Source of the DNA: Terriglobia bacterium | GTDB taxonomy: Bacteria > Acidobacteriota > Terriglobia > 20CM-2-55-15 | Direction of reading: 5' to 3' | DNA length: 64,000 nucleotides | Assembly (NCBI GenBank): GCA_963664115.2 | Contig: CAXWPJ010000005.1 | Span: forward strand, 64,001-128,000 | Shown: positions 9,204 to 34,091 of the stretch, piece by piece | How the letters are laid out: each line of letters begins with the position of its first letter | Numbering within the stretch: the first letter of the stretch is position 1 | The notes under the pieces: model-generated | What the model saw: only the letters and a program-made list of their open reading frames with translations | Database searches by the model: none | Told to the model about the DNA's origin: nothing | Position numbers and translations under genes: made by a program

Positions 9204-10022
9204 TTACTTGATTCGGAAAACGATGTCATCGCCCAACACTGTGAAGGCGGCGCCTTGTTGCGAGGCAGAAGTTTCAAGCGCCCGGTTGGGTCCTGCCGAG
9301 ATGACGACTACGGCGATTTCGGGAAGCACCTCGGTCCCTAGTATCAAGCTTGCTCCCAAGCCGCTCTCAAAGAACCCGACGTGTAGCATTCGAACATTGA
9401 TCATATACTTGTTGCCCCAGGGATCGGTACTTGACATAGTAGCGATGTAGGGTCCGGACCAGCCACGTTGCGGGTCACCCGGAACCGAGCCTCTAAGTGG
9501 GTAACTTTCATCACCAAGGAAATCTGTGTCAACCAAGAAGTCGTCGCTCCGACGGTCGAGATTATTTGTCACGAGGTGCCCTTCGATGGAGTCGTCAGTC
9601 GTTACGAGCCGATGGCCGAATCGGCCAGATCCGCCCGCATAGCTAGGGATACCGGTGCCACTTGGGACGCCTTCCCACCCTGAAACACTCGATTCGACTG
9701 TAGGATACGTTCCGTTCTGTGAGACAAGGTTGTCAAAAAAAAGGTCGCCCGGGCCCGTATTGTTACCCACTTTGAACAACGGAAAAAACGAGCTGTCCTT
9801 ATAGAACGTGATCACACCCTGTCCGATCACCGAGACGTCGGCGATGGCTGCCTGAATCTTGGAGTCGTTGATCGCATCGATCGCACTACCGACAGCGACG
9901 CCGGCGAGTACCGCACCCACGGCTACAGTTGCTGTTGCTTCGATCAGCGATGTTGCGACGCCTCGTGTCCCTTTAATCAGCTTTTTGATCGTTCTTGCAA
10001 TTTCTGTTTTTGCTGCTTTCAT
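9204..10022 (-). CDS. GspG-like (pseudo)pilin with atypical prepilin site
   Basis: Basic leader, RGVATSLIE plus hydrophobic helix; GWSGPY, DPWGNKY, ISAGPN, GDDIVFRIK. Confidence 0.8.
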   Translation of the reverse strand: MKAAKTEIARTIKKLIKGTRGVATSLIEATATVAVGAVLAGVAVGSAIDAINDSKIQAAIADVSVIGQGVITFYKDSSFFPLFKVGNNTGPGDLFFDNLVSQNGTYPTVESSVSGWEGVPSGTGIPSYAGGSGRFGHRLVTTDDSIEGHLVTNNLDRRSDDFLVDTDFLGDESYPLRGSVPGDPQRGWSGPYIATMSSTDPWGNKYMINVRMLHVGFFESGLGASLILGTEVLPEIAVVVISAGPNRALETSASQQGAAFTVLGDDIVFRIK

Positions 10023-10064
10023 GTCCCAGCTCCTTCTGCTGATCTGTTCCGTAAGCCATTCTTA

Positions 10065-10080
10065 TGCACGCTGGGTGCCA
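10065..10080 (-). promoter_or_regulatory. sigma54 -24/-12 promoter
   Basis: Minus strand TGGCAC-CCAGC-GTGCA, 43 nt upstream of the ATG. Confidence 0.7.
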
Positions 10081-10121
10081 GAGCGTAAGTGTATGAATAT
10101 AAAGCTCTCATGTTTCTAAGT

Positions 10122-10140
10122 GTCCACCAAATTCGTAGAT
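10122..10140. promoter_or_regulatory. putative enhancer-binding-protein site
   Basis: GTCCAC-N7-GTAGAT; variant of the palindrome found upstream of all three sigma54 promoters. Confidence 0.5.
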
Positions 10141-10241
10141 GGGCCATTCCGTGGTCAACAACTTTGCGAGTACTACTATAGGTGTACGTCGTCAGAATAA
10201 TTCGGACAAAAAGACCATTTAGCTAAGAGACGGTTTTGAAG

Positions 10242-11225
10242 TTATACCACTCCAATCCTAAGGTTCTCGATTTTGCGTCGAGCCAGCGTTTTTCTTTTGA
10301 TCTGGTCACGACGTGCAAGGATCTGCTGATCCCTCCCGAAGAACACGTCAGCCGGTGTCACGTTGTTCAGAGATTCGTGATACCGATGGTGGTTGTAGTG
10401 TTCGACCCATTGCGCGATCGCCTGCTCAAGTTCCCACGGATAATAGTAGTGTTCCAACTTGACCACGTTCTTCATCGAACGGTGATAGCGTTCGATCTTG
10501 CCCTGTGTCATCGGGTGATAGGGCGCACCCCGGGTGTGTTCCATACCACGACGTTGTAAATAGTCTTTGAGTTCGTGCGATACGTAGCAGGGGCCGTTGT
10601 CGCTCAACAATCGCGGTCGGTGCCGGACTTGTACTTGTCCGACATCTGTCGCCTGTAGTGCAACGTCCAGCGTGTCCTGAACGTCAGATGCGGCCATGGT
10701 TTGAAAGAGCTTCCAGGCGATGATGTAGCGAGAGTAATCGTCCAGCACGGTCGACAGGTAGTACCAACCCCAACCGACGACCCTGAAGTAAGTGAAATCA
10801 GTTTGCCAGAGTTCGTTCACACGCCGGGTTGGCTGCTGGAAGTGATCGCTGGCCGTCATCACGATGTATGCGGGACTGGTGATCAGGTCGCATCTCTTCA
10901 GAATCCGATACACGCTGGATTCGGAGATGAAGTAGTCCTGGGTGTCGGTGATCTGCCAGGCCAGTTCCCGCGGTGAGGCTTCCGGGTGGTTCAACGCGGT
11001 TTCGACCACCTGTTCCCGCACCGGTCCCGGAATCCGGTTCCAGCAGAAGCCGGGGCCGGAATGCCGATCTAACAAGCCGGCTGCGCCACGCTCTTTGTAT
11101 CGTCGATACCAACCGTAGAACGTGCTGCGGGGGACGCCCAGCTCCCGGAGGGTCGCTGTCACCGACAACTCCGAGTCTTCCACCACTCGGATCGTCTCCA
11201 GCTTCTCAGATCCCGATTGCCTCAT
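10242..11225 (-). CDS. IS3-family transposase OrfB (DDE integrase core)
   Basis: WQTDFT, LDDYSR, LSDNG, GKIERYH; in -1 frame relative to orfA with ATGA overlap; A7 slippery tract at 11260-11266. Confidence 0.9.
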   Translation of the reverse strand: MRQSGSEKLETIRVVEDSELSVTATLRELGVPRSTFYGWYRRYKERGAAGLLDRHSGPGFCWNRIPGPVREQVVETALNHPEASPRELAWQITDTQDYFISESSVYRILKRCDLITSPAYIVMTASDHFQQPTRRVNELWQTDFTYFRVVGWGWYYLSTVLDDYSRYIIAWKLFQTMAASDVQDTLDVALQATDVGQVQVRHRPRLLSDNGPCYVSHELKDYLQRRGMEHTRGAPYHPMTQGKIERYHRSMKNVVKLEHYYYPWELEQAIAQWVEHYNHHRYHESLNNVTPADVFFGRDQQILARRDQIKRKTLARRKIENLRIGVV

Positions 11226-11587
11226 ATATCGATGCTCTCGGAGTCCGTTACGTTCAACGTTTTTTTCAGAAAACGATTCTTTAGCAGTATTTCGGCCACG
11301 ACCTGCTTCAACTGATCGTTTTCCTGCCGCAACTCGGTGACTTCGCTCGATGTCGCTTCCCGCTTCGTGTCCCCAGCCAGCCGTTTCTTCCCCGCCTCCA
11401 GGAAGTCCTTGCTCCACCGGTAATACAGATTTGACGGAATCCCTTCGCGTCGGCACAGTTCTGCGATGCTCTCTTCGCCTCGCAACCCTTCCAACACGAT
11501 CCGCACTTTCTCCTCAGACGAGTACTTCTTGCGCGTCTTTCGACGAATCTCTCGTACCCGATTCTCTGCCGACACTTTCTCACTCAT
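11222..11587 (-). CDS. IS3-family transposase OrfA (HTH)
   Basis: YSSEEKVRIVLEGLRGEESIAELCRREGI..NLYYRW plus leucine-zipper-like C-terminus. Confidence 0.9.
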   Translation of the reverse strand: MSEKVSAENRVREIRRKTRKKYSSEEKVRIVLEGLRGEESIAELCRREGIPSNLYYRWSKDFLEAGKKRLAGDTKREATSSEVTELRQENDQLKQVVAEILLKNRFLKKTLNVTDSESIDI

Positions 11588-11672
11588 TCGATCCTCCTTC
11601 AGATCGTTCTGATTAGAAAAGTGTCTCTTAGTTTTTTAGGGTATTTCGTACGAAATGCTCTGACGGGCTACA

Positions 11673-14373: not shown

Positions 14374-14398
14374 CACCCTGTTATTATCGCTGCAAGAC

Positions 14399-14432
14399 AA
14401 AAGGGCCGCAAGCTATTGTGCTCGGGCCCTTT
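14399..14432 (-). terminator. putative terminator/attenuating hairpin between short and long pilin genes
   Basis: AAAAGGGCC...GGCCCTTT imperfect stem with U-run on the minus strand. Confidence 0.5.
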
Positions 14433-14496
14433 CCTAAGTGGTCTGCGTACTAATCGGAATCTGTCGGAGGCGATTCCACATTCTTTCGCCGACTCG

Positions 14497-15120
14497 TCAG
14501 CGAATACGTTGGACGATGTCGTCGTTGCCGACCGTGAACGTCCCGGTCCTTGTCTGTGTGAACACCGTGTCAATGGTCTTGTCGGGTCCTGCGGAGAGAA
14601 CGAACGCTGCGTTGGCTCCTCCCGACGGCGCCAAATCGGCCCCGTTAAAATAATACTTGGTGCCCCACGGATCCGTGTCGATGTCGGCCATGTACGGGCC
14701 GTTCCAAGCGCGTGGCCCGGAGGTGGTGAGGGTGAGGGAGTTCTCGTTTACGATCCCAGTGATAGACCCGTTACTGGTCGTTATAAATCCAACCCATGCG
14801 TCGGAAATCCCGTTCGCGCGGGCAGCGACGTCACCGTCTGTGGTTTCCATCGCGTCAGGTACAGTACCGTTGGGAATATCAGACGAGCTCGCATAGATAG
14901 GCTAGGCGCGGGTGTCGGTGTTGAAGGACAGGATGGCGGCCGCGATGTTTCGAATATCGTTCTGGGCGGTGTTATTGCGAGCGCGGTCGACGTAGCTGTT
15001 GATCATCGGCGTGATAATGGCTGCCAGGATGGCGATGATCGCCAGCACGACAACCAACTCGATCAGGCTCCATCCGCCGTTCACTCTCGTTTCCGTTCTG
15101 TTGTTGTTTTCTTGTTTCAT
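14497..15120 (-). pseudogene. short GspG-like pilin with a single in-frame TAG
   Basis: ORFs 14902-15120 and 14497-14850 share a frame; DTRA*PIY at 14902-14904; GWSLIE N-terminus; WNGPY, DPWGTKY, LSAGPD, NDDIVQRIR. Confidence 0.85.
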
Positions 15121-15145: not shown

Positions 15146-15161
15146 AGCAGCTCGTATGCCA
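15146..15161 (-). promoter_or_regulatory. sigma54 -24/-12 promoter
   Basis: Minus strand TGGCAT-ACGAG-CTGCT upstream of the GGAGG RBS of the 15120 gene. Confidence 0.65.
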
Positions 15162-15352: not shown

Positions 15353-17158
15353 ATGACAGAGAGTTCGGCCCAGAAAACAGGCTCGACCAAGCGCGAAGTC
15401 GTCGTGATGTTCAGCGACATCGTCAGCTATACCGAGTACTGCGACAAGCACGGCGAAGAAGCCGGTGTAGAACTGGTTGCCCGCCACGAGGACATGGTGT
15501 TTCCTATCATCGAAGGCCAGGGTGGGACTGTTGTCAAAACCATCGGTGACGCCGTGATGGCCTACTTCGAGGAAGCCGAGCAGGCCGGGCTGGCCGCACA
15601 GGAGATCATGCTGGCCGTAGCGGTTGACAATGAGGACAGGTCAAAGGACGAGGAGATGCACCTCAGGGCTGCTTTTCACATGGGTCCGGTAATCGTCCGC
15701 AACAAAGACCTGTTTGGAGACACCGTCAATCAGGCCTCAAGGATGGCGGGTGTGGGGCAGCCGGATCAGATCCTGATTTCCCGGTCCATGATCGACATCC
15801 TCAGCGACAATCCGAAGTTCATATGCCGCTTTGTCGGGAAAGCGGACTTCCACGGCAAGACGGGAACCATAGAGCTGTTCGAAATCCTCACGCAGAAGCT
15901 CGAACTCAAAGAAAAAAAGAAGTCCAAGATCGTTTCCGATAGTGCTGTCAAAGAGGACGAGACAGTCGGCAAGGGCCGATTGATCGGCGATAAGTACTTC
16001 ATTGAGAAAATGATCGGAGAGGGTGGCTACGGCAAGGTCTTCAAGGCCCGTCATGAAGAAACGAAGGATGTCGTGGCCATCAAGATGCTTCCGGAAGACG
16101 CCTATTCCTTTTACAGCCGCGAGGCCCAGGTCCTGCGTCAGCTGCAACCCTGCCCCTACATCATGAGCATTATCGATGCTTTCGTGGACGAAGAAGGCCT
16201 GTGCATCGTCATGCCCTATATCGAGCACGGGAGCCTCCAGACCTACATGAACACGCTCAATGGGGATCCACTCCAGCCGGGGCAGACGATCTCGCTGATG
16301 GAAGAGCTTCTGTTGGGCATTGCACATGCCCATTCCCGGGAAGTCATCCACCGCGACGTCAAGCCCCAGAACATCCTGCTGGCCAAAGGGACGGACGGGA
16401 TCCTGACGGATTTCGGTATTGCTCATGCGATGGAGTCCACCGGCCGGACTTCCACAATGACCGCCGGCACGTCCGGCTACATCGCTCCCGAGGTGACTTC
16501 CGGGAAGTTCGACGCTTCAATTGATGTCTACTCGGCGGGCGTCGTCCTCTACAAGATGCTCGGCGGAGAGTTCCCGGTCGACCTGAAGACTCTACCGCCC
16601 TACACCGACCCCAACTTCGTGAAGATCGTTGCCCGCGCGATAGCGGATCGTTCTAAGCGTTATTCCTCCCCCGAAGAAATGCTGGAAGAACTGCGCGGGA
16701 TGGGCTCCAGGGTCCTGGAGTCGACGATGAAGATCATCGCGCAGTCCGGAGAGGAGCGAATCCTCGTAGCAGCCGAAGACGCCGCTTGGGAAACGCTCCA
16801 GACAATGCTGGAAGTCAATAATACTACCGCTATGCGTTGCCGCCTGGACGCACTCCTCAAGCAGGTCCACTGGCAAGTGCCCTCAGTGACGATACTGGAC
16901 TTCACTCTGCTGGCGACATCCCTGTCGAGCGTGCCGGAACAAGTTCGGGCCTGCAGTGCTCTCGGGACAAAGGTGATCGTGGTGAACTGCGGGACGATAG
17001 CTGAGGCCCAGGACATGCTCGATGCCGGTGCTGCCGATTGCACGGCGTCGCTGGAGGCGCCCCAATCCGCGGAGGCGCTGTCGTTGGCAATCAACACCCT
17101 TATGGCGCAGATTCAACTGGGAAGCGGCAAGTCCTGGTGGAAGAAGATAATCAGCTAG
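15353..17158 (+). CDS. class III adenylate cyclase - Ser/Thr kinase - degenerate receiver fusion
   Basis: Cyclase: FSDIVSYT, VKTIGDAVM, DLFGDTVNQASR; kinase: GEGGYG, VAIK, HRDVKPQN, DFG, APE; REC-like C-terminus. Confidence 0.9.
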   Translation: MTESSAQKTGSTKREVVVMFSDIVSYTEYCDKHGEEAGVELVARHEDMVFPIIEGQGGTVVKTIGDAVMAYFEEAEQAGLAAQEIMLAVAVDNEDRSKDEEMHLRAAFHMGPVIVRNKDLFGDTVNQASRMAGVGQPDQILISRSMIDILSDNPKFICRFVGKADFHGKTGTIELFEILTQKLELKEKKKSKIVSDSAVKEDETVGKGRLIGDKYFIEKMIGEGGYGKVFKARHEETKDVVAIKMLPEDAYSFYSREAQVLRQLQPCPYIMSIIDAFVDEEGLCIVMPYIEHGSLQTYMNTLNGDPLQPGQTISLMEELLLGIAHAHSREVIHRDVKPQNILLAKGTDGILTDFGIAHAMESTGRTSTMTAGTSGYIAPEVTSGKFDASIDVYSAGVVLYKMLGGEFPVDLKTLPPYTDPNFVKIVARAIADRSKRYSSPEEMLEELRGMGSRVLESTMKIIAQSGEERILVAAEDAAWETLQTMLEVNNTTAMRCRLDALLKQVHWQVPSVTILDFTLLATSLSSVPEQVRACSALGTKVIVVNCGTIAEAQDMLDAGAADCTASLEAPQSAEALSLAINTLMAQIQLGSGKSWWKKIIS

Positions 17159-17277: not shown

Positions 17278-17643
17278 GCTGTCTGGGCAAGAAGAAACTG
17301 TTTATCGAATCCGCTGAGCTATATCATCCCCACCAACAGCGAACGCGACGTTGTTGGCTTGACCCCGGGTTGTTTCGATCGTTGCGTTCGGTCCGGCCGA
17401 AAGCACGAATGAGTGTTGTGCGGTTCCAGCACGAGACAGGGCGAATGCCGTCACGAGGTAGTAATTGCCCCAGGGATCTGCCCCGAGATCGATGTACGGA
17501 CCACGGTAAGCCACGCGGCCTCCCCGTGCGCTCGTCGGCAGGGTGAGCAGATTTTGGTTGAGGAAGGTGTCCAGAGTCCCGGTCCCCCCCACCGTCCAAC
17601 TACTCAGGGTCGGTTCATCTCCCGGTCCGAAGAGATCGTCGGC

Positions 17644-19028
17644 GAGTTATAACCGAATCTGGTGTTTGAGGGATTGAATAAGAGCGGCGTATCTGGTTGA
17701 TTTGTTGTGACAAAACTTCAAAGCAACCATAGGAGATACGCCACTGTGAGCAAGAGTAACGTGAATGGACCGGAAGGTCGAGAAACGATTGAGGATCCAG
17801 TAACAGAACTACTACGAGTTGGGGCACAGCAACTGATCCAACGCGCAGTGGAAGCCGAATTGGCAGAGCTGCTATCCCAGCACGGTGGCCGGCGAACTGA
17901 GACAGGAAACGCCGGGGTGGTACGCAACGGTTATCTGCCGGAACGCGAACTGCAGACGGGATTGGGTCCGGTAACAGTCCAAATCCCGAAGGTCCGTGCC
18001 AAGACGGGCGAAGCTGTGACGTTCCGATCGGCCCTGGTACCACCGTACATTCGGAAGACGAAGTCGCTGGAAGCAGCGGTGCCGTGGTTGTATTTGAAAG
18101 GCGTTTCCAGCGGCGAGATGGGTGAGGCCCTAAAAGTTCTTGTCGGTCCCCAGGCGCAGGGTCTGTCGGCGAGCACGGTATCGCGGTTGAAACAGGTTTG
18201 GGGCGAACAGTACCGCCTCGGATGCGAGGAGCGTTTGGATGCAGATCGCTGGGTCTATGTCTGGGCCGACGGCATCTACAGCGGACTTCGGGCGGAACAA
18301 ACCAAGTTGTGTGCATTGGTCGTGATCGGCGTGAATGAACGCGGAGAGAAGCGTTTCCTGGCGATCGAAGACGGTGTACGGGAATCGACACAGAGTTGGC
18401 GCGAGGTCTTGTTGAAGCTGAAGTCCCGTGGGATGAATGTTCCGAAGTTGGCCATCGGTGACGGTGCGATGGGGTTCTGGGCCGCACTGGAGGAAATCTA
18501 TCCCGAGACACGTCAACAACGTTGCTGGATGCACAAAGTCATGAACGTCCTCAACTGCCTGCCCAAGTCGGTCCAGGCGAAGGCGAAACAGGCCCTGCAC
18601 TCGATCTGGCAGGCCGAGACGAAGGCAGACGCCGAGAAGGCATTCGACTTGTTCATTGAAACCTATGAACCGAAGTATCCGAAAGCCACACTCTGCCTGC
18701 AGAAAGACAGAGAGGAACTGCTGGCCTTTTACGACTTTCCGGCCAAGCACTGGCAGAGCATCAGAACGACGAATCCCATTGAGTCGACCTTTGCCACCAT
18801 TCGACACCGAACGAAGCGATCCAGAGGTTGCCTGACACGGGATGGCATGCTGCACATGATGTTCAAACTGGGCCAGTGCGCTGAGAACAATTGGCGACGA
18901 TTACGAGGATTCGATGATCTGAGCAAGGTAATCATCGGAGTGAAATTCAACGATGGTGTCGAAGCGACACAAGTCGATCAGGCCGCCGCTTGAATCAATC
19001 TCCTAAACACCACTTTTGACAATAACTC
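17644..19028 (+). mobile_element. IS256-family insertion sequence, 1385 bp
   Basis: Terminal IRs GAGTTAT-N9-TGGTGTTT; 9-bp direct repeats ATCGTCGGC at 17635-17643 and 19029-19037. Confidence 0.95.
17746..18993 (+). CDS. IS256-family (Mutator-type) transposase
   Basis: RNGYLPER, YVWADG, AIGDGAMGF, QRCWMHK, RTTNPIES; GTG start after AGGAG. Confidence 0.95.
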   Translation: MSKSNVNGPEGRETIEDPVTELLRVGAQQLIQRAVEAELAELLSQHGGRRTETGNAGVVRNGYLPERELQTGLGPVTVQIPKVRAKTGEAVTFRSALVPPYIRKTKSLEAAVPWLYLKGVSSGEMGEALKVLVGPQAQGLSASTVSRLKQVWGEQYRLGCEERLDADRWVYVWADGIYSGLRAEQTKLCALVVIGVNERGEKRFLAIEDGVRESTQSWREVLLKLKSRGMNVPKLAIGDGAMGFWAALEEIYPETRQQRCWMHKVMNVLNCLPKSVQAKAKQALHSIWQAETKADAEKAFDLFIETYEPKYPKATLCLQKDREELLAFYDFPAKHWQSIRTTNPIESTFATIRHRTKRSRGCLTRDGMLHMMFKLGQCAENNWRRLRGFDDLSKVIIGVKFNDGVEATQVDQAAA

Positions 19029-19393
19029 ATCGTCGGCACCAAGGACGTCTGAATTCGCGTCAGAGATATTGTTGTACACGGGGAATCTGGACGTATCTCG
19101 CTGGTAACCCAGGATAGCCGTGGCTATCGCTCGAACGTCGGACTGTGCCCGTGTTTCGCGGGCCTGGTCGATATAGCCGGTTACCATCGGAGTGAGAACG
19201 GCCGCGAGGATTGCGATAATGGCCAGGACCACTGCCAGCTCGATGAGCGTGAAACCCTTGTTGTTCAATTCTTTATTAGACATTTGAGAATCTCCTGTCC
19301 TTGCTAGAGTCCCCATTCCCCGACGAGATTATGTATCGGTCTTTTATTCTGGAGGTGGCGGATCTTCGTCCGCTCACCTCCAATTCGTGTCCG

Positions 19394-20778: not shown

Positions 20779-20794
20779 TGCAATCGTCTTGCCA
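20779..20794 (-). promoter_or_regulatory. sigma54 -24/-12 promoter
   Basis: Minus strand TGGCAA-GACGA-TTGCA. Confidence 0.75.
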
Positions 20795-24651: not shown

Positions 24652-25940
24652 GGCCCCGCCTGAGGGGACGAATTCTGTTGGAAGGATAAGTCCTGGATTT
24701 TCTGTTCGACCGACTCCACGAAGTCAGGGAAACGGTTTGCTCCCAGTTCCAGAAATAACCTGTAATGCTCAACCGCGCTGGCGTTCTCGCGTTCTTCTTC
24801 GTAAAGTACCGCTAAATTGTAATGCGTTTCCGCGCTCGAGGGTTGGACTTGAAGAGCGCTGAGGTATCGAAACTTCGCTTCTTCAATGTCGCCCGCACGC
24901 CGGCTCAGGATCGCAAGGTTGGTCATCGCCACGCCGTTCTGCGGATTCAACTCCAGAGCCCGTTCGAATGCTCGTGTCGCGCCCGCGTCCTGGCCGTCTT
25001 CCATCAGGACCGTACCCAGATTGTTGTAGGCCTTGTCGTAGCGGGGGTCGATGCGAATCGCCGTATTGAATGAGCGTATGGCTTCCGGGTTGTTGGCCAT
25101 CGACATATACATGAGCCCCAGATTATTGTGGACCGATTTGTTCATAGGGTTTTGGTCCAGCATCTGGTTGTAGTACTCCAGGGCTTTGAGATAGTCACCG
25201 CTCTGATGGTAGAAGAGCGCCAGCTCGAAAGGATCTCCTGCGGAACTATTGATCTGGAGGTCGGAAGGCTCCGGGGGCGCTTCGGCGGCTGACTCCACGG
25301 GTGTTTCGTCCGGTGTAGTTTCTTCCACGGCTCCGACCCCGACAGACGGCGGAGGCGCCGTTTCCACCAATTCCGTGAAAGCTCCATCGTTCGGCGCTTC
25401 CTCTAACGAGGGTGCCTCAGACTCTGCGGGCGGTGCAAGCTCAGACACTACAGGTTCCGGTACCGGAGGCGGGAGCGGAGTTTCCTCCGCGGTGTTGGGT
25501 ATTGGGGGTTCCGGTGATGTAACGGCAGTTTCAATCTCGCTCGGGATTTCAGATTCGGCCTCCGGTTCTGTACCGGCAACGTTCGCATCGGTTGATTCGA
25601 CTGCATCGGTCTCTTGAGGAGCGATGTCCACGTCAAGATCATTCAACGCACTCACATCATCGTTACCAGGAAGGAGCAGATTGCCGGCTTCGAGTAACTG
25701 GGCCTGTTCCTCCATCGAAGAGGCACCCGTCCATCGGATGTAGACGATTACGCCGCTTGCCAGGACAGTCGAGATAATTACAATCGGGAGCACATAAGTC
25801 GTTAGAATCTTCTTTGACTTTTTCGGTTCGGCCTTTTCTCCCTCAAAGCCAAAGCTCTTCAGAAACGCCGGCGCACGCTGGGGCGCCGATCCTCCGGCAA
25901 GGCTCTTGGCTTTTCGCAGTGCGTCCAGTATCAGACTCAT
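24648..25940 (-). CDS. GspB/ExeB-like N-terminus plus TPR protein (MshN-like)
   Basis: MSLILDALRKAK start, one TM, Pro/Glu-rich linker, about five TPR repeats. Confidence 0.75.
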   Translation of the reverse strand: MSLILDALRKAKSLAGGSAPQRAPAFLKSFGFEGEKAEPKKSKKILTTYVLPIVIISTVLASGVIVYIRWTGASSMEEQAQLLEAGNLLLPGNDDVSALNDLDVDIAPQETDAVESTDANVAGTEPEAESEIPSEIETAVTSPEPPIPNTAEETPLPPPVPEPVVSELAPPAESEAPSLEEAPNDGAFTELVETAPPPSVGVGAVEETTPDETPVESAAEAPPEPSDLQINSSAGDPFELALFYHQSGDYLKALEYYNQMLDQNPMNKSVHNNLGLMYMSMANNPEAIRSFNTAIRIDPRYDKAYNNLGTVLMEDGQDAGATRAFERALELNPQNGVAMTNLAILSRRAGDIEEAKFRYLSALQVQPSSAETHYNLAVLYEEERENASAVEHYRLFLELGANRFPDFVESVEQKIQDLSFQQNSSPQAGP

Positions 25941-25948
25941 TGATTCGC

Positions 25949-26914
25949 CTAGTTTGCTCCGAATCCGGTAATCAAGGCAACGACAACGATTGCCACAAGA
26001 ATGGAAATACCTACAACGAAAACAGTTTTCTTGACCGGCACAATTTCTCTCAAACGGTTCCACCCTTCCGAAGACGTTCCCGACTTACTCAACTGTAAGT
26101 TGTCGATCGCACGACGGGCTACGTCTCCGTCAATCGTCGTCGATCCCAGAGCCATGCCTGCGAGCAGCGATCGGTCGGCAATCAGGTTGATCAATCGAGG
26201 CACGCCTCCCGAATACTCGTAGATTTTTCGAGTCGCCGAGAGGTCAAATGAGACTCTCGTCGGACTCCCGCCCGCCACAGATAGGCGATGCCGGATGTAA
26301 TCAGCGGATTCCGGCTCGGACAACGGCGATAGTTCACACTTGATGGAAACCCTCTGGAACAGTTGCCTCAAACTGGGCTGGGAGAGAAGGTCGATAAGGT
26401 TGAGCTGGCCGACCAGGACAATCTGCAGTAATTTTTCCTTGTGCGTTTCCAGATTCGATAGAATGCGGATCTGTTCGAGCGTTCCCATAGGAATGTTATG
26501 GGCTTCATCAATCAGGACGACGGCCCGTCCACCCGACTCGAGAGTTTTCAGAAGGAAACCATTTAAAATATTGATGAGATCCCGCGTGCTGAGACTTCCC
26601 TGAGCATCTTTTCTTCCCGGAAGTTTGACGTTGAGATCCTCCAGGATCGCCTTGATCAGGTCGGTCTCCGACAGAAACGGGTTCAACAGGAGAGCTGTAG
26701 AGACATCCTTGTCGGTGGCACCGAGGACCGTTCGACATAGCGTGGTCTTGCCGGTTCCGATATCCCCGTAGACGAGCATGAACCCTTCGCGACGCTCGAT
26801 GCCATACTGCAGGAGTTCGAAAGCACGCGTATGGCCTTCACTTCTATAGAAGTACTTGGGGTCGGGTGTCAGGCTGAACGGTGGTTCAATCAGTCCGTAG
26901 TGTTCTTCGTACAT
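25949..26914 (-). CDS. ExeA/GspA/MshM-family AAA ATPase
   Basis: MYEEHYGL..PFSLTPDP, GDIGTGKTT, LIDEAH, VLVGQ, SGGVPRLIN. Confidence 0.92.
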   Translation of the reverse strand: MYEEHYGLIEPPFSLTPDPKYFYRSEGHTRAFELLQYGIERREGFMLVYGDIGTGKTTLCRTVLGATDKDVSTALLLNPFLSETDLIKAILEDLNVKLPGRKDAQGSLSTRDLINILNGFLLKTLESGGRAVVLIDEAHNIPMGTLEQIRILSNLETHKEKLLQIVLVGQLNLIDLLSQPSLRQLFQRVSIKCELSPLSEPESADYIRHRLSVAGGSPTRVSFDLSATRKIYEYSGGVPRLINLIADRSLLAGMALGSTTIDGDVARRAIDNLQLSKSGTSSEGWNRLREIVPVKKTVFVVGISILVAIVVVALITGFGAN

Positions 26915-26972: not shown

Positions 26973-28490
26973 TCAGTCCAAAGTTTCCCGCAGCTCTGCC
27001 TGGTTCTCCAATCGCTGTCGCGCGTAGTCGGCCGCGCTCTGAACCGTGGTGATCGTCGGAGTCAGCAGAATCACCATATCGGTCTTTCGGGTTTCCAACT
27101 CAACGCTCCTGAATAATTTTCCAATCAGTGGAATATCGCCGAGAATGGGTACCTTTGTCTCCGCCTTGAGCGTGCGGTCCGAGATGAATCCGGCAATGAA
27201 AATGGTGTCTCCTTCCCTGACCCGCAACACCGTATCGGTTTCACGTACATCGACGATAGGAACCGTGGTCCCATCAGGCGACGTCGCCTGTCCGGTACGT
27301 TCCGTGATGGTCGGATGAATGTTCATCGTGATAATCCCATCGGAGCTGATTTGCGGTGTCACGTCCAGGACGACACCTTCGTTGATCGTGGCCGGAGTCG
27401 TTGTCGTGGAAATGGTACGCCCGGTGTCCGGATCCAACTGACTCGTTGTCGTAAAGAACACGTCCTGCGTTCCGGTGCGGAACACGGCCGGCTGGTTGTT
27501 GAGCGTCGAGATACTGGAAGCTGAGAGGACGTTGACTTCTCCGCGTGTCGAAAGCGTTTGAATCAGGGCGTCGAAGTCGCCGTGAGTCACGTTGAAGTTG
27601 AAACCGTTCTGGATAGCCGACCCGAGACTCTGGGTCAGAGTCCCCGTTGTACCCAGGATCGCCGACCAATCAACACCGGCACGATAATTGTCATTGAGCT
27701 TCACCTCGATGATTCTGGCCTCAATCACAACCTGCCGGTTGACGGCGTTCTGTATCAGTTCCAGATACGTTCCTATCGCGTCCAGATAGGGCCTGTAATC
27801 GGTGACGAAGATCAGCCCGGCAAGTTTGTTGTAGATGATCCGGCCTTCGGGCGATATCAGTGTGGCCAGGTCCGTTTCGATATCAGTCAGGAGACTTGTG
27901 CTCTCCGTTCCTGAAATCGATGTGCTCGAATTGCCGCCCCCGCCGCCGCCAATGTTGGCCCCTCCAGTGCCCCCTGTGGTGCCCCCGCCTCCGGCCGAAG
28001 CGCTGGCCGAAAGAGACCGGCTGACCGTTCGTTCGGTTGTGATGTAGTCGAACTCGAAGGTTCGCGTTTCCAACTGGGGCATGTTCACTCTTAGGAGTTC
28101 CCCATCGATCTGATACTCCAATCCCCGTGGATCCAGAATCACCGCAAGCGCTTCTTCCAGGTTTACGCCGCGGAGGTCGGCGTCTACGGTGTCCGCGATG
28201 GCCGGATCCATCACAAGGCTCAGGCCGTTGGCCTGTGCCAGTGCATTGAGCACTTGACGGAGGTCCGCCGCGACCATGAGCACGTCGAAAGGGTTCGTTC
28301 CGGCATCCTGCTCCAGTTCGAGTTGCACGGCCGGAAGTTGCTGGCCCGGTCCCGGAACCCGATCCTGTACACCCGGAGTGGCCACGCTGGCAACCGCACC
28401 ACCGGGCGTCACGATCTGTGAAATGTTGAGCTCTCGCGGAAGCCCCGGCTGCTGTATGAAAAGTGCCAAAGCTATGGTCATCGCCTGCAT
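26973..28490 (-). CDS. secretin (MshL/GspD/PilQ family)
   Basis: QVVIEARIIEV, TLNNQPA, GVVLDVTPQI, KVPILGDIPLIGKLF, ILLTP; Gly/Ser-rich loop after ETRTFEFDY as in MshL-type secretins. Confidence 0.93.
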   Translation of the reverse strand: MQAMTIALALFIQQPGLPRELNISQIVTPGGAVASVATPGVQDRVPGPGQQLPAVQLELEQDAGTNPFDVLMVAADLRQVLNALAQANGLSLVMDPAIADTVDADLRGVNLEEALAVILDPRGLEYQIDGELLRVNMPQLETRTFEFDYITTERTVSRSLSASASAGGGGTTGGTGGANIGGGGGGNSSTSISGTESTSLLTDIETDLATLISPEGRIIYNKLAGLIFVTDYRPYLDAIGTYLELIQNAVNRQVVIEARIIEVKLNDNYRAGVDWSAILGTTGTLTQSLGSAIQNGFNFNVTHGDFDALIQTLSTRGEVNVLSASSISTLNNQPAVFRTGTQDVFFTTTSQLDPDTGRTISTTTTPATINEGVVLDVTPQISSDGIITMNIHPTITERTGQATSPDGTTVPIVDVRETDTVLRVREGDTIFIAGFISDRTLKAETKVPILGDIPLIGKLFRSVELETRKTDMVILLTPTITTVQSAADYARQRLENQAELRETLD

Positions 28491-28507: not shown

Positions 28508-29146
28508 TTATCTGGGCGCCAGGATATCGGATCTGTTGATCCGCACCTGTCGGGTTTCACCGGCCCTTTCGAGTACGACCCCTTGATCGTTGATTTGGCT
28601 GACAGTCTCTTCCCCGAGCCGGTCCCCGAGCCGGACAACGCGGGAATCGACAACGGCCCAAGCACCCTCTTCACCTGCAACGATTACCGAAACCGTGTAT
28701 TGGGGCAGGACGCGTACCTGCTCGGGCAGTGGCGCCAGAATCGGTTCCGGCAGATTTATGATTTCCGGTATTAGTGGTTGCGGAGCCAGCGCCGCGATTT
28801 CCTCAGGGGTAAGGAAAGGATTTCGCCCCCATGCGCCTGCGGGCAGCACGGCTAGCTGTTCTGGCAGTGTTGCATCACCCACGATCGCCGGTGCGGGTGT
28901 CAGTCCGGCAGCTATTGTAAGTGGCGCAACTACTGCGGGTGTCAGTCCGGTAGCGATTGTTGGTGCCGCAACGGGTGCCGGTGCAAGTGCAGGCGGAGCG
29001 GTCGCTGCCCTCTGCCCGACCGTTTCAGCTTGCTGAGTCACGATCGGGGCTGTCGGCCGCGAGCGACGCACCTGTAGCGTGATTACACCGGATACAGCAA
29101 TGGCGCCCGCGAACAGAATGAGCATTTGTTTGGCTTTCTCGCTCAT
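28508..29146 (-). CDS. PilP/MshK/GspC-like assembly protein
   Basis: N-terminal TM, Ala/Pro-rich linker with a short internal repeat, WGRNPF motif, beta-rich C-terminus; position before the secretin. Confidence 0.6.
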   Translation of the reverse strand: MSEKAKQMLILFAGAIAVSGVITLQVRRSRPTAPIVTQQAETVGQRAATAPPALAPAPVAAPTIATGLTPAVVAPLTIAAGLTPAPAIVGDATLPEQLAVLPAGAWGRNPFLTPEEIAALAPQPLIPEIINLPEPILAPLPEQVRVLPQYTVSVIVAGEEGAWAVVDSRVVRLGDRLGEETVSQINDQGVVLERAGETRQVRINRSDILAPR

Positions 29147-29727
29147 GCCGCTGTCTCGCTTTGGTAGACACGGAAAGACATCGTCACGGAGATCGTCGAT
29201 GGCTGACGGGTCAGTTGTACAGAAACGAATTCCACGAGTCTGGGAAGATTCCCAACATCACGCACGAACTCTGCCACGTTGCGATAGTCCGCACTGAAAC
29301 CTACGGTGACGGTTATGTGCCGCAGAATTCCGACGGATTGCATCAAGGCTTGGTCCGGCGACAGTTCCGCGCCATCTGCGATCACGAATTCTTCAGTAGC
29401 CAGCTCGAAACGGCCCAACTGGTTCAAGGTTGCCAGCCGCGTCACGTCCTGAAGCAGAGCGGGAATTTCCGCGTCGGCCAAAAGCATGCTTGCCATAAGA
29501 TTTTGGTCTGTTGACCACCGGGCGCGTTCCTCATCTGTGGGGAGCACGATGGCTTCCGCTTGCCGCTCCATCCCGGCCAGTTCGTCCTGCCCTTCAGTTG
29601 CGGCCGCTTCCAGCTTTCCCATCTGCAATGTCAGCATGACGACACCCGCGATCGAGAGGACAATCGCAGCTCCGTAGCCAACAACATGCATGTCGAGTCC
29701 TTCTAGAGCTTTGATTTTAAAAGGCAT
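29143..29727 (-). CDS. PilO/MshJ/GspM-like protein
   Basis: TM, coiled coil, EIPALL, ITVTVGFSADYRNVAEFV..LPRLV. Confidence 0.75.
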   Translation of the reverse strand: MPFKIKALEGLDMHVVGYGAAIVLSIAGVVMLTLQMGKLEAAATEGQDELAGMERQAEAIVLPTDEERARWSTDQNLMASMLLADAEIPALLQDVTRLATLNQLGRFELATEEFVIADGAELSPDQALMQSVGILRHITVTVGFSADYRNVAEFVRDVGNLPRLVEFVSVQLTRQPSTISVTMSFRVYQSETAA

Positions 29728-31223
29728 CGAACCTCAAATGTGACGCGGCTTGCAATGACAGGGTTGAACGTCGAGTCCGCGTCCTCGGGAGCTTGCACGT
29801 CTTCGTACGTGACGTTCAAGGGTTTGCTCAGCTCGACGGACGTAAAATGCTCCAGGCTTCGAAGGTCGTCGAAAAAGCGCGAAAAATCGGCATTCGTTTG
29901 TCCCTGGGCTCCTCTGAGATAGCCGGTAACCACCAGAGCATTGGTATCACCACTTACGATCTGTATCGTTTCAAAAACGGCGGTGTCCGGGACGATAAGA
30001 CTCAAACTGCGTAGCGTTTCCTGCCAATCAACCTCTGACGCCATCCGGCCCATGAAGGAAGCACGTGTGCCGGCAAGACTGCGATCTGCGTCGCCGGCCG
30101 CTCCTTCAGACAGCACCGGCTCCAAGGCAACGATCGATGCGTCAATGTCCAGCTGCTGGGCCGTCAGTTGACGTGATCCGGTGACGTAGCGAATCCCGAA
30201 AAGCAGCAGGATACCCATGGCCAACATCGCGGCGATTTTGACCAGCTTCTTATACGCGGGTGGCCCTTCTTTCGTTCCCGCCTTTCCGGGAATCAGGTTC
30301 AGGCCTTCGTCGGTGGAAGCGCGCCACGCTACGCCGAAAGCCGGCGCCAGTGAAGGTATGTGGAAACGAAACTCCTCCCATTCGCCCTTGAATGCGGATG
30401 GGTCCAGATTGTCGTCGAATCGCAGGACGTTGGTCTCGATTCCCAGTTCTGATTTCACTTTGGAGACCATCGAGCCGATCATGTCGCTTTCTCCCGAAAA
30501 CAACATCTCGTCGATCTGGCCCTGGGGGAAATTCTGCCGGAAGTACAGCGTCGAGCGCTTGATTTCGGTCATCAAGCGATCGAACTGCTGCTCGGGTTCG
30601 ACATCCTTAAAACTGATGGGTATGTCACGGCAGAGCAGCATCGCGCCTTCTTGAATGAAGAGGACGTGAACACTGCCGACGCCGAAATGAACGATCGTCT
30701 TGACGACGTCGTTCTTCCAGTACCCGATGTGCTTGACCAGGTTAAGCAGTGCTTCACCGACGGTTGTAACCTTCTGGAGTTTGAGGTTGGAGCCGCCAAA
30801 GAATTCCTGGGCCTCAGTGACGATATTGGTTGCCGCAGTGACCAGCAGTATCTGGCGTTTCTTGATGCCAAGTTCTTCCTTGGCTCTCAGGATTTCGAAG
30901 TCAGAAAAGGTTTCAGTAACGCCCGCTGGAGCCGACTTCTTGGCCTCGCGCTGCATGACGAATCGAAGCTCTCTTCCCGACAGCGGCGGCAGGGTCAGCA
31001 ACCGATGTTCGACCTGCACGCCGTTCGAGGCCACCACTGCTTCTTTCGCCTCGAAGCCGCGTACCTGCAGTGTGTGGTTGAGCTGGTCCAACCTTCTTCC
31101 GGGGTCGATGGCGCGATTATCGATTATGGCGAAGTTGTAAACCTTCAGTCGCCGGCCATAACCCACCTCAACGAGCTTGATGCTCTCCGGCGAGAATTCG
31201 ATTCCGAGGACCCTGTTTGCCAT
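29703..31223 (-). CDS. fused PilM-PilN (MshI/GspL-like) protein
   Basis: LGIEFSPESIKLVEV actin-like PilM start, LNLIP motif, TM, periplasmic PilN-like domain. Confidence 0.75.
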   Translation of the reverse strand: MANRVLGIEFSPESIKLVEVGYGRRLKVYNFAIIDNRAIDPGRRLDQLNHTLQVRGFEAKEAVVASNGVQVEHRLLTLPPLSGRELRFVMQREAKKSAPAGVTETFSDFEILRAKEELGIKKRQILLVTAATNIVTEAQEFFGGSNLKLQKVTTVGEALLNLVKHIGYWKNDVVKTIVHFGVGSVHVLFIQEGAMLLCRDIPISFKDVEPEQQFDRLMTEIKRSTLYFRQNFPQGQIDEMLFSGESDMIGSMVSKVKSELGIETNVLRFDDNLDPSAFKGEWEEFRFHIPSLAPAFGVAWRASTDEGLNLIPGKAGTKEGPPAYKKLVKIAAMLAMGILLLFGIRYVTGSRQLTAQQLDIDASIVALEPVLSEGAAGDADRSLAGTRASFMGRMASEVDWQETLRSLSLIVPDTAVFETIQIVSGDTNALVVTGYLRGAQGQTNADFSRFFDDLRSLEHFTSVELSKPLNVTYEDVQAPEDADSTFNPVIASRVTFEVRCLLKSKL

Positions 31224-31226
31224 AAG

Positions 31227-32426
31227 CTAGCCTTGAAAGCTCTGCATCATCTGGTAGAGCGGTAGATAGATTGCAAGAGCCACTGTCAACACTACACAAG
31301 CGAGAAACACGTAGAGCAAGGGTTCCATCGTTGCAAACACGCGCTTGATCGTGGCTGGAATTTCTTTATCGTAGTAAACGCAGATCCTCGCCAGGGAAGT
31401 ATCCAATTGGCCACTGGTTTCTCCAACTCGAAATACCCGAATTACCATTGGCGGATGGCCCGTGGCCGTCAGCGATTTCGCGATCGATTCTCCAGCCCGT
31501 ATCTCGTTCCGAATCACAGCTGTCGCGTTACCCAGGACCCGGTTGCCAACCACCGTTTGGAGAATCTGAAGGGTTTGGGAAATATCGACGCCGGCGTTGA
31601 AAAGGATCTGGAAAAAATGGCAGAAGCGGGACAAGGCGATGTCACGCACGAGCACACCAAAAATTGGAATCTTGAGCATCCATCCATCGATTCGGAGTTC
31701 GCCTGCATCGGTGCGACGCCAGAAAAAGAATCCGAAGCCAATCATGACGACCATGCCGATGAGCAGCCACCAGTAACCCACCAGTAATTCGCTTAATGTG
31801 AACAGGATCTGAGTCGGCAAGGGCATGGGGCCGCGTGCCTGGCTGAGAACGTTTGAAAACTGGGGGAACACGACAGTCGCGAGCAGGACCACCAGTCCTC
31901 CTACAGCGGAAAGCACCATGATCGGGTAGATCAATGCCTGAGTGATGTCTCTCCGGAGGTCTCCCTTCCACTCCAGGAAATTTGCGAGATCAGCCAGAAC
32001 CCGGTCGAGGTTTCCGGAGTCCTCTCCCGCCTGGATAATGCTGACATACACGTCGTCAAACACCTCGGGGTGGCGTCCGAATGCGGCGGACATACTTGAA
32101 CCTGCTTCGACACTCGCAAGCATGTCGCTGATGACGAGCTTCATCTTGACCTTGTCAGCGCCTTCCGCCAGATCCCAGAGCGTGGCTGTGAGTGAAATAC
32201 CGACTGAGAGCATGGTTGCCATATCCGAGGTGAAATTCAGGACGTCTCGGGTCTTAATCCTTTCGAAGAGACGCCCGCTTTCCTCTTTCTTTTTTGCCGG
32301 TCCGGCTTGGATCAGGAACAGATTCTGTGCGTCAAGCAGATCGGCGAGGATATCTTCGTCGTCGGCTTCCAGAACCCCTGTAACTGTTCGTCCGCCTTCA
32401 TCTTTCGCTCTGTATTCAAATTCCAT
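31227..32426 (-). CDS. inner-membrane platform protein (PilC/GspF/MshG)
   Basis: FEYRAKD, AGEDSGNLD, ALIYP, LPLPT-like MPLPTQ, GETSGQLD, MEP, AIYLPL. Confidence 0.93.
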   Translation of the reverse strand: MEFEYRAKDEGGRTVTGVLEADDEDILADLLDAQNLFLIQAGPAKKKEESGRLFERIKTRDVLNFTSDMATMLSVGISLTATLWDLAEGADKVKMKLVISDMLASVEAGSSMSAAFGRHPEVFDDVYVSIIQAGEDSGNLDRVLADLANFLEWKGDLRRDITQALIYPIMVLSAVGGLVVLLATVVFPQFSNVLSQARGPMPLPTQILFTLSELLVGYWWLLIGMVVMIGFGFFFWRRTDAGELRIDGWMLKIPIFGVLVRDIALSRFCHFFQILFNAGVDISQTLQILQTVVGNRVLGNATAVIRNEIRAGESIAKSLTATGHPPMVIRVFRVGETSGQLDTSLARICVYYDKEIPATIKRVFATMEPLLYVFLACVVLTVALAIYLPLYQMMQSFQG

Positions 32427-32432
32427 GTTCGT

Positions 32433-34091
32433 CTACACCGAGCGCGCTATTTCGTCGATCGTCGTAAGCCCTTTCCGGGCCTGCGCCAGTCCATCTTCCT
32501 GCATGGTAATCATGCCCTCTTCTCTCGCCAGCTTGTGAACTTCGCTGGCGGCGGCCTGATCCATGATGGCCTTTCGGATATGTTCGTTCATCAGCATGAC
32601 TTCCGAAACCGCTGTTCGGCCTCGATATCCGGTGTTTTCACAATTGCTGCATCCAGCGCCTTTGAAGAATTCGGCTTTTGGAGCGCTCATGCGCCGCAGG
32701 AGTCGGGGATCGGGCTCTGTCGGTTCGCGGCAGAATTCACAGATCTGCCGGACCAGACGTTGGGCGATGATGCCGACCACTGAAGACGCCACCAGATAGG
32801 GTTCCACTCCCATGTCCAGCAGTCGGGGAACCGTCGATGCGGCGTCGTTCGTATGCAGCGTGCTGAACACCAGCAAGCCGGTCAAAGCTGCCCGGATCGC
32901 CGTGTCTACCGTCTCGTTGTCGCGCATCTCACCGACCAGCACGGTGTCGGGATCCTGCCTCAAGATTGCCCGGAGCCCGGCCGCGTACGTTAATCCCGCG
33001 CGGACGTTGATCTGCGATTGACGAATCAGAGGAAGCTCATATTCGACCGGGTCTTCCAGTGTAATGATTTTCCGTTCCGGTGTGCTAATTCTGAGCAGCG
33101 CCGCATAAAGTGTCGTCGTTTTTCCCGAACCCGTCGGACCCGTCACCAGAACGATCCCGTTGGGATGCTCGATTGCCTCAACCAGGCGCTCCAGGTTTGC
33201 TTCGGAAAAGCCGAGCTTTTCCAGGCCGATCGTCAGTTGTTCTTTGTTTAAGACGCGCAGAACGATGTTTTCACCAAAGATCGTGGGGAACGTGCCGATT
33301 CGAAGATCGATCGGCTTGCTATAGATTTCGATCGTGGCCTTACCGTCCTGAGGGAGGCGCGATTCGGAGATGTTGAGATTTCCCATGATCTTGATGCGGG
33401 AAAGGACTGCCCGTTCAAGTTTCTTGGGAATATAGGGGCCCTGGTGGAGTACGCCGTCCACTCGAAAACGGATGCGCATCATGTTTTTTTCGGGTTCGAA
33501 ATGTATGTCGGTCGCGCGCTTCCGAACGCCATCGATGATGATAGTGTCGATCAACTTGACGACAGGAGCGACCATAGCCAGATCTTCGCGGGTGTCACTT
33601 CCGGCAGCGTCAGCCTGGCTTGTGGCTTCCTTGATTAAATTTTCGATGTCTTCGGTTTCACGTCCGGCGCCGTAGTACTTGTCGATGGTCGTTAGGATGT
33701 CGAATTCGCTTGAAGACACAACTTTGACGAACTGTGCAGTCATCCGTCCGACGTCGTCGACCGCACCGACGTCGAGGGGATCAGCCATCGCGACGGTAAT
33801 CGATCCTTCATCGGACGAGACCGGGAACAACTTTTTGTCTCGCGCGTATTGCTCTGGAATCGATTCGATGATGGTGGGGTCGATGGATTGGAGGCGGAGA
33901 CTGATGTACTCGATTCCAGCGGCTTCGGCCAGGACGCGCGTCATTGCGTCCTCGGTGACCAGATTCAGGCGACGCATCACGACGCCGAGCCTGTCACCGC
34001 CGCGCGCCTGCTCGGCGAGTGCAAATTCGAGCTGGTCTTCGGAAATCAGACCGGCCCGAATCAACTGCTGTCCTGTTCTGTTGTCTGCCAT
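32433..34091 (-). CDS. assembly ATPase (PilB/GspE/MshE) with N-terminal MshEN domain
   Basis: ATDIHFEP, GPTGSGKTTT, LRQDPD, GEMRD, STLHTN, CxxC...CxxC; RTGQQLIRAGLISEDQLEFALAEQ. Confidence 0.95.
   Translation of the reverse strand: MADNRTGQQLIRAGLISEDQLEFALAEQARGGDRLGVVMRRLNLVTEDAMTRVLAEAAGIEYISLRLQSIDPTIIESIPEQYARDKKLFPVSSDEGSITVAMADPLDVGAVDDVGRMTAQFVKVVSSSEFDILTTIDKYYGAGRETEDIENLIKEATSQADAAGSDTREDLAMVAPVVKLIDTIIIDGVRKRATDIHFEPEKNMMRIRFRVDGVLHQGPYIPKKLERAVLSRIKIMGNLNISESRLPQDGKATIEIYSKPIDLRIGTFPTIFGENIVLRVLNKEQLTIGLEKLGFSEANLERLVEAIEHPNGIVLVTGPTGSGKTTTLYAALLRISTPERKIITLEDPVEYELPLIRQSQINVRAGLTYAAGLRAILRQDPDTVLVGEMRDNETVDTAIRAALTGLLVFSTLHTNDAASTVPRLLDMGVEPYLVASSVVGIIAQRLVRQICEFCREPTEPDPRLLRRMSAPKAEFFKGAGCSNCENTGYRGRTAVSEVMLMNEHIRKAIMDQAAASEVHKLAREEGMITMQEDGLAQARKGLTTIDEIARSV

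Follow-up and report, generated by a model that had tools for sequence, protein, structure and literature searches.

Which filament would be built by an MSH-related machine with GspG-like pilin genes in an acidobacterium?

The GspG fold and its calcium loop count as a hallmark of the periplasmic endopilus of type II secretion systems (T2SS), and the mannose-sensitive haemagglutinin pilus (MSHA, with its wider MSH systems) as a small proteobacterial group, so what is built by a locus that joins both? Such a locus occupies positions 9204..34091 of the window, by which we mean a 64,000-nucleotide stretch (G000:C5:64001-128000, contig CAXWPJ010000005.1) from the 4.9-Mb, 97% complete genome of a Terriglobia bacterium (Acidobacteriota), where a set of machine and regulator genes is followed by an array of pilin genes. 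At a probability of about 0.58 we read it as a filament machine of the MSH lineage with only GspG-like pilin genes, which would likely form a surface adhesion pilus with a predicted four-subunit tip of enlarged GspG-fold paralogues; the window's copy no longer has the fourth of these paralogues and is probably in decay.

The machine and its regulators comprise eleven open reading frames (ORFs), all co-oriented on the minus strand as an initial annotation of the bare sequence had proposed, and ten of them give the expected Pfam or NCBIfam matches. At the front stand an extension ATPase with T2SSE and MshEN domains and an MshE-like role (32433..34091), whose motif for cyclic di-GMP (c-di-GMP) scores 50.7 bits against a cut-off of 38, and a PilC/MshG platform protein (31227..32426; T2SSF). 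There follow a PilM-PilN fusion in the position of MshI (29703..31223; PilM_2), a PilO/MshJ-like protein (29143..29727; PF04350, E 9e-9) and an MshK-like protein of PilP/GspC type (28508..29146), the one ORF with neither Pfam nor NCBIfam match, which is named from its position and from a profile whose best matches are the MshK-position ORFs of Legionella (E 1e-11) and Aeromonas (3e-11). An MshL-like secretin (26973..28490), with TIGR02519 as best match at 212 bits, under the cut-off of 250, precedes an ExeA/MshM-type AAA ATPase (25949..26914; AAA_22), which lies between it and an MshN-like protein with a tetratricopeptide repeat (TPR) domain (ORF bounds 24648..26063, the true start probably downstream). 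An A24 prepilin peptidase (24046..24651; PF01478, E 6e-14), a PAS histidine kinase (22448..23920) and a sigma-54 response regulator (21000..22400) complete the set, the last two recognised by Pfam/NCBIfam and presumably PilS-like and PilR-like in role. The profile of the PilM-PilN fusion matches best a GspL-like gene of the T2SS in the same genome (E 7e-33) and then the halves of Aeromonas MshI (E 2e-21 and 1e-6), and pairwise BLAST of the fusion against MshI gives no significant match; the PilO/MshJ-like protein has only a weak profile match to MshJ (E 0.011); the ExeA/MshM-type ATPase is 39% identical to Aeromonas MshM and 43.5% to a different Aeromonas ExeA-type gene; and the MshN-like profile finds an MshN-position ORF best (E 4e-19), TPR similarity being generic by itself. 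Set beside the msh loci of Aeromonas and Legionella adelaidensis, the genes keep the MshI-J-K-L-M-N order, E and G having shifted to the front.

Phylogenies were computed under LG+G4, with no mixture model and few references. In the secretin tree the window sequence joins the two MshL references (support 97/94), and array-linked secretins of other phyla fall in at least three separate places. MshG and all 20 platform proteins linked to arrays make up a single clade (100/98), from which 7 T2SS and 5 type IVa pilus (T4aP) references are separate, and the platform of the window lies in the sister of the subclade that holds MshG; this tree suggests that MSHA would be a single branch within a far broader group found in uncultured phyla. 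For the ATPase, in a tree from which 10 rows (near-duplicates and long branches) had been dropped and to which four references had been added, the window sequence belongs, with support of 98/93, to a 13-row clade whose members are array-linked; the full set of 22 array-linked ATPases is not monophyletic, and the backbone is unresolved. Grouping the window ATPase and its three nearest kin with four T2SS references is rejected by the approximately unbiased test (p-AU 0.0008), and the 13-row clade as sister of MshE is not (p-AU 0.061). ATPase, secretin and platform all lie outside the T4aP references PilB, PilQ and PilC (6, 2 and 5 used) and outside their T2SS counterparts GspE, GspD and GspF. 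Because of the MshI-J-K-L-M-N order, the secretin placed with MshL and the platform clade shared with MshG, we call the machine MSH-related, in keeping with the MSHA-like machine of the initial annotation. In the accessible part of the survey by Denise et al. (PMC6668835), mshA, E, G, L and M are mandatory, MSH loci carry no peptidase, and their hosts are Gamma- and Epsilonproteobacteria and Chrysiogenetes; judged from its genes, the locus would work like an MSH machine and would fall outside MSH by its pilins and its peptidase.

What such a machine would polymerise is indicated by the eight pilin genes that follow it. The motifs GPY, D[PA]WG, S.G[PG] and DD[IL] occur in all seven genes that have a C-terminal part, and every mature pilin part counts zero cysteines, both as first noticed. 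We compared profiles of three pilin classes (short, VATSLIE and long), with the N-terminal helix removed, with 6 GspG and 18 other references (MshA-D/O, GspH-J, PilA-type and PpdD, with GspK and MshP outside the set), and all three rank the six GspG references over the other 18, the sixth being marginal for the long class (E 0.078). The same globular-domain profiles give E above 0.3 for each of Aeromonas MshA, B, C, D and O and no globular match to the GspH/I/J references, TIGR01708 and TIGR01707 matches being confined to the N-terminal helix; neither the window pilins nor 90 long pilins match any FimU, PilV, PilW, PilX or PilY1 family of Pfam or NCBIfam, and the initial failure to recognise such minor subunits is upheld to that extent. 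All pilins score below the cut-off of the GspG equivalog TIGR01710 (best 59.1 versus 88.85 bits). Structure prediction agrees for the two classes modelled. The GspG-like head of the long pilin P6 (model pLDDT, predicted local distance difference test, 91.6) superposes on EpsG with Z 9.7 (root-mean-square deviation, rmsd, 2.3; 99 residues aligned) and on PulG with Z 8.4, its CnaB/transthyretin-like domain reaches Z up to 10.9, and its Foldseek matches are mostly beta-sandwich proteins, for example sortase pilins; the VATSLIE pilin P8 (pLDDT 88.3) finds EpsG at Z 7.4 (rmsd 2.5, 101 aligned), PulG at 6.7 and the next known pilin at 4.5. All three predicted classes are thus GspG-like by profile, and P6 and P8 also by modelled fold, as the initial annotation had grouped them. 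Two candidates were set aside: the solved environmental pili 9xnc and 9xnh match only through the N-terminal helix, and marks of PF22434 (PilW_C) on VATSLIE proteins were not reproduced with a second copy of Pfam.

The calcium-binding loop that had been read into all of these pilins keeps its spacing in one class. Within the window, P5 and P6, both long pilins, are alone in having the D-x6-DD spacing of Escherichia coli GspG, which 53 of 90 long pilins show overall; in short and VATSLIE pilins the loop measures 18-20 residues and its first position is often Asn (102 of 118 VATSLIE sequences). In the part of PMC13081927 that is accessible, PulG/OutG bind calcium mainly through D117 and D125, possibly also D124, and calcium binding is plausible for the long class only.

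The array in the window, its pilin genes all on the minus strand, holds the eight genes first counted, of which five are intact and three (P3, P4 and P7) broken, the latter a point that the first count had passed over. It opens with P1, an intact VATSLIE-class pilin (20067..20756) with a sigma-54-type -24/-12 site upstream (20780..20794), and P2, an intact short pilin with F1, E5 and P22 (19394..20017; T2SSG), likely the major pilin. P3, another short pilin (17302..19283), is split by a plus-strand IS256-family element (17644..19028) flanked by a 9-bp target duplication. An adenylate/guanylate cyclase-Ser/Thr kinase fusion then interrupts the array on the opposite strand (15353..17158, plus); this gene has the same place in five relatives (G007, G014, G017, G021 and G029) and lies beside pilins in G026, and it is possibly a dedicated regulator. 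P4, a short pilin of GWSL type (14497..15120) with its own sigma-54-type site (15147..15161), carries an in-frame TAG at 14902-14904 where four of four relatives have Trp; since the stop allele occurs in sequencing runs X1, X4 and X6 and the Trp allele in X7, the stop is not an assembly slip. The long modular GspG-fold pilins follow: P5 (L1, 13177..14373), intact; P6 (L2, 11981..13180), with a GspG head, a CnaB/transthyretin-like domain and an inserted beta-sandwich; and P7 (11673..11984), the first 104 codons of L3 (80% to L3 of G003), cut there by an element (10183..11672, minus; rve/HTH) that we take to be IS481-like from its TGT...ACA ends. Beyond it, P8 (9204..10022), an intact VATSLIE-class GspG-fold pilin, has its own predicted promoter, with a sigma-54-type site at 10065..10080. 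An orphan VATSLIE pilin elsewhere in the genome (G000:C9:1272218-1272988; L001:10216-10980), 52% identical to P8, has no pilus genes near, and G003, G029 and others likewise have second P8-type copies.

The rest of L3, L4, a trailing short pilin and the orthologue of a 1033-aa protein, all known from relatives, are absent from the window and were not found elsewhere in the genome. We infer a deletion past the start of L3 because of the layout in relatives; the IS481-like element has no target duplication, which is uninformative on this point, as 1 of its 18 copies has one. Contigs from run X12 end at 13576 and at 16098, the latter an IS256 end, and suggest further insertions; putative joints of further deletions in runs X1, X6 and X7 have sides of fewer than 30 letters and were not counted. 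Insertion sequences are abundant in this genome, with 48 near-full IS256 and 18 near-full IS481-like copies among the matches listed. The undescribed system announced for the window is, on this evidence, present there probably as a damaged, incomplete and decaying copy.

Its complete form is seen in relatives, which a single-protein scan of genome contigs did not find and an alignment-based scan did. Strong long-pilin matches occur in 9 of 60 related genomes, all of the same family, and in the fullest of the nine loci examined P1 comes first, followed by two or three short pilins, by the cyclase-kinase (opposite strand) and the short pilin of GWSL type, then by the four long pilins with one more short pilin behind them, and after these by the 1033-aa secreted protein, P8 and a homoserine dehydrogenase. 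Every Glu5-type pilin ORF in these loci (57/57) is GspG-like. The platform orthologue is found in 10 of 61 genomes, all ten with a VATSLIE pilin, and 5 further genomes have a VATSLIE-profile match and no platform orthologue. Frameshifts and insertions are common in the relatives' loci and may reflect decay or assembly error. When 40 long pilins, taken from 10 arrays and the window, are placed in one tree, the acidobacterial L1-L4 cluster by position, and L4 forms one clade over Acidobacteriota and Planctomycetota (100/99). Identity among the four is 31-47% within one genome, and their order is fixed, with Glu5 present in 9/9 L1, 9/11 L2 (Asp in the other two), 10/10 L3 and 0/10 L4; of these, L1, L2 and the beginning of L3 survive in the window and L4 is lost. 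Known tip complexes include a capping subunit without Glu5, according to the accessible parts of PMC10191384 and PMC12918778, and the latter describes K-type pilins as invariably without it and mshDOPQ as parallel to pilVWXY1. Because of the fixed order and the Glu5-less L4, as in K-type caps, L1-L4 are read as a predicted tip initiation complex, which by sequence and analogy would have arisen by duplication of one GspG-like gene. By sequence none of the pilins maps onto the MshA-D/O, GspH-J or PilA references; by role the long pilins would map onto H-I-J-K, not by homology.

After the array, several relatives encode the 1033-aa secreted, beta-rich, non-pilin protein with CarboxypepD_reg and TIG domains and no PilY1 domain (L032:11721-14819 in G007). 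The proposal that major, minor and adhesin subunits all derive from GspG is therefore sustained for the 57 Glu5-type ORFs and not for this protein; in other phyla, arrays are often placed beside a conventional pilin without GPY. The family of the 1033-aa protein includes members of up to 5115 aa and is a candidate surface-protein family of these acidobacteria. TPR membrane proteins also sit beside the array (L032:9655-11352 in G007; L042:15559-17259 in G014), one with a PMT_2 glycosyltransferase match, and pilin glycosylation is possible. In one relative (G017:C1:4586753-4621174) two pilin arrays in tandem are separated from the machine genes by about 150-190 kb, and additional degenerate long pilins come after the first array.

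These observations suggest the following course of assembly. The kinase and the sigma-54 regulator would activate the three pilin promoters at which sites are seen, and the A24 peptidase, whose motifs are present, would process the prepilins. L1-L2-L3-L4 would assemble first, with the Glu5-less L4 apical as are GspK, PilX and MshP, and the CnaB-like and beta-sandwich domains of the quartet may be displayed as adhesive modules. The MshEN ATPase, likely gated by c-di-GMP, and the platform would then add short pilins of P2/P3 type (F1, E5, P22) as the shaft, VATSLIE pilins serving perhaps as alternative major or spacer subunits, and the fibre would exit through the MshL-type secretin aided by the MshM/MshN-like pair. 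The 1033-aa protein of relatives might, more speculatively, be a tip partner like MshQ or PilY1.

Could the same genes serve a second, atypical protein-secretion system, in which a short periplasmic endopilus of GspG type expels a folded substrate such as the 1033-aa protein? The GspG fold without cysteines, the calcium loop that the accessible text of PMC13081927 gives as a mark of T2SS endopili, the lack of PilT in the locus and the closeness of the PilM-PilN fusion to a GspL-like gene would suit it, and Geobacter Pul/OxpG offers a precedent of several pseudopilins in a secreting system (PMC3543383, as far as its available part goes). We nevertheless consider secretion unlikely: secretin, platform and ATPase all lie outside the T2SS references, a canonical T2SS is already encoded in the genome, the candidate substrate is common in genomes that have no such machine, and separate sigma-54 promoters with two or three tandem variable short pilins better fit a surface fibre. 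An ordinary MSHA pilus with pilins that are divergent MshA-D/O/P orthologues is very improbable, since for pilins this is largely refuted by the lack of any globular match to MshA, B, C, D and O beside clear GspG matches, and since Aeromonas Msh pilins have 2-4 cysteines and no GPY; the MSH gene order, the MshL-type secretin, the MshG clade and the tolerated sister relationship of the ATPases to MshE speak for it, and the peptidase in the locus, which no MSH locus has in the accessible part of PMC6668835, against it. The long pilins with their adhesin-type folds likewise sit poorly with a DNA-uptake pilus resembling the Cts system of Campylobacter, which is MSH-related, as does the finding that no ComEC/ComEA-type gene was recognised in or beside the locus, in the window or in relatives by general domain scans, no dedicated search having been made; despite the ExeA-type ATPase and the short secretin architecture we give DNA uptake hardly any weight.

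A fourth alternative keeps the surface pilus and changes its tip: the long pilins would be optional decorations, or a heteropolymer along the shaft, and VATSLIE pilins or an unlinked gene would start assembly. Its attractions are the single fold common to all four long pilins, the VATSLIE genes with their own promoters and orphan copies, the arrays of G031 and G026 without a quartet, and the many arrays of other phyla with no Glu5-less member by the strict motif; the fixed order, the positional orthology and the absence of Glu5 from ten of ten L4 are what a stoichiometric tip complex would lead one to expect, and we regard decoration as rather improbable. Several results nonetheless weigh against the preferred reading, a pilus of an MSH-lineage machine with a GspG-like tip quartet. 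The msh references were thin (two MshE, two MshL and one MshG), and grouping the window ATPase and its three nearest kin with MshE is rejected (p-AU 0.024). The Z of 7.4 for P8 is within the tool's 'common' range, and the P8 model has no Foldseek match at E 0.001 or better. Planctomycete L1 and L2 fall outside the acidobacterial L1 and L2 clades and L3 joins weakly. G031, with short and VATSLIE pilins, and G026 have no long quartet, so that the quartet may be dispensable or these copies decayed (in G004 the contig ends too early to judge), and 11 of 15 wider arrays with at least three strict-motif genes have no Glu5-less member, the strict motif missing acidobacterial L4. The 1033-aa family occurs in 24 of 34 family genomes and the machine in 9 of 34.

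The arrangement extends well beyond the family. A motif scan of species genomes gave 348 matching stretches, 243 of which encode relatives, in at least 76 loci, with titles naming Brocadiales, Binatia, Methylomirabilia, Nitrospinota, Nitrospira, Omnitrophota, Bdellovibrionota, Marinimicrobia, Zixibacteria, Ignavibacteria, WOR-3, Latescibacterota, Eisenbacteria, Aminicenantes and Myxococcota. Genes for ATPase, platform, PilM-N and secretin adjoin many of these arrays, where a conventional pilin of 130-172 aa without GPY is often present as well, and Glu5-less members occur in six loci of other phyla (L067, L075, L085, L095, L104 and L109). Within the phylum, short-class pilins are found in 28 of 400 sampled genomes. 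Neighbours in a sequence atlas are unnamed clusters, and the long pilins have no match in plasmid sequences, a collection in which NZ_AP026896.1, NZ_CP154629.1 and NZ_CP119142.1, filed as plasmids, are chromosome-like at 2-5 Mb. Other acidobacterial families have 10-11 GspG-like short pilins in a row, a bigger expansion than that of the window (G080:C1:1176000-1195000; G096:C2:1968000-1985000; L170-L173), and Bdellovibrionota arrays (L087:11774; L076:2818) encode GspG-like pilins of 736-1055 aa with 28-90 cysteines. We tentatively propose, at somewhat less than even odds, a distinct type IV filament subtype in more than a dozen mostly uncultured lineages, making up a larger clade around MSHA, which has calcium-type GspG-fold pili and a four-subunit tip complex that arose anew through duplication of a single GspG-like gene, the capping copy having lost Glu5 convergently.

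The sigma-54 pattern was a general consensus, widened after the window sites were seen; it finds sites at 3 of 11 starts tested in the window (upstream of P1, P4 and P8) and, in relatives, at 5/9 VATSLIE, 1/4 GWSL, 2/16 short and 0/20 long pilin genes, against a background of 1.3%. Ratios of nonsynonymous to synonymous change (dN/dS) against G001 and G003 are 0.07-0.28, with synonymous sites near saturation, and point to past purifying selection, not to present function. Beyond the ATPase, a 156-aa ORF with no Pfam match and a sigma-54-type site upstream at 34721 is followed by a ClpB-D2-only AAA protein (34746-36438, plus); the relatives G001, G007, G021 and G029 have this pair upstream of their machine genes as well. 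Elsewhere the genome has its canonical T2SS on contig C9, separate from the locus, and PilB/PilC/pilin loci on C2 and C6, the ATPase adjoining the second PilC at C2:473k being fragmented. PilT is missing from the locus, as first noted. The assembly has frameshifts in both of the genome's PilT-like genes, on C12 (G000:C12:55146-57459); if these are artefacts of assembly, the two genes could act in trans, and together with the fragmented C2 ATPase they may instead mark the decay of several pilus systems. Identical array pieces of 151-350 bp in two sequencing runs labelled sponge metagenome, from a single study, make sponge a likely, if thinly supported, habitat. Targeted and broader literature searches, with most subscription papers and supplements outside their scope, found no description of the system, which agrees with the initial annotation; the tables of Denise et al. 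(PMC6668835) could hold some such loci as generic systems. The combination of an MSH-lineage machine, GspG-fold pilins and a likely re-invented tip quartet is a real and apparently undescribed variant of type IV filament systems.

Compared with known systems, the locus resembles the MSHA pilus of Vibrio and Aeromonas in its MshI-J-K-L-M-N order, MshEN ATPase, MshG-clade platform, MshL-clade secretin and missing PilT, and, in relatives, in a last minor pilin that lacks Glu5 and has a large secreted protein after it; it differs in having cysteine-free GspG-fold pilins in place of MshA-D/O types, its own prepilin peptidase and sigma-54 two-component pair, an ATPase in a separate clade, and hosts among Acidobacteriota and other uncultured phyla. 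With the T2SS endopilus (GspG/PulG/EpsG) it shares the fold of the pilin head, the GPY, DPWG and SxGxD..DD motifs, the lack of a disulfide and, in the long class, D-x6-DD, whereas its GspG-like genes number at least eight rather than one, GspH-J homologues are absent, its pilins score below the TIGR01710 cut-off, and its secretin, platform and ATPase lie outside the T2SS clades. Several pseudopilins per system and large minor pilins are also described for the Pul (OxpG) T2SS of Geobacter and Pelobacter and the Pih pilus of Pelobacter, which has Msh, Pih and Pul systems (accessible part of PMC3543383); on the descriptions compared here these have two or three pseudopilins only, and they may or may not be linked to the locus. 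Like the PilHIJK/GspHIJK tip complex, the arrays of ten relatives (not the window, where L4 is missing) have a set of four minor pilins whose order is fixed and whose last member lacks Glu5, yet these are four full-length paralogues of one modular GspG-fold protein rather than four distinct H, I, J and K families. Streptococcus sanguinis PilABC, as presented in the available part of PMC10191384, likewise replaces HIJK by other minor pilins with grafted adhesive domains, in a monoderm T4aP with three subunits, whereas the machine here is diderm, of MSH type, and has a GspG-fold quartet. It follows that a 'GspG' annotation in such genomes need not imply protein secretion. HIJK members have diverged too far for easy comparison, which makes the origin of the tip complex from a major pilin hard to trace, and a quartet of paralogues at 31-47% identity in which the Glu5 rule is already present would make that origin testable by structure and mutagenesis.

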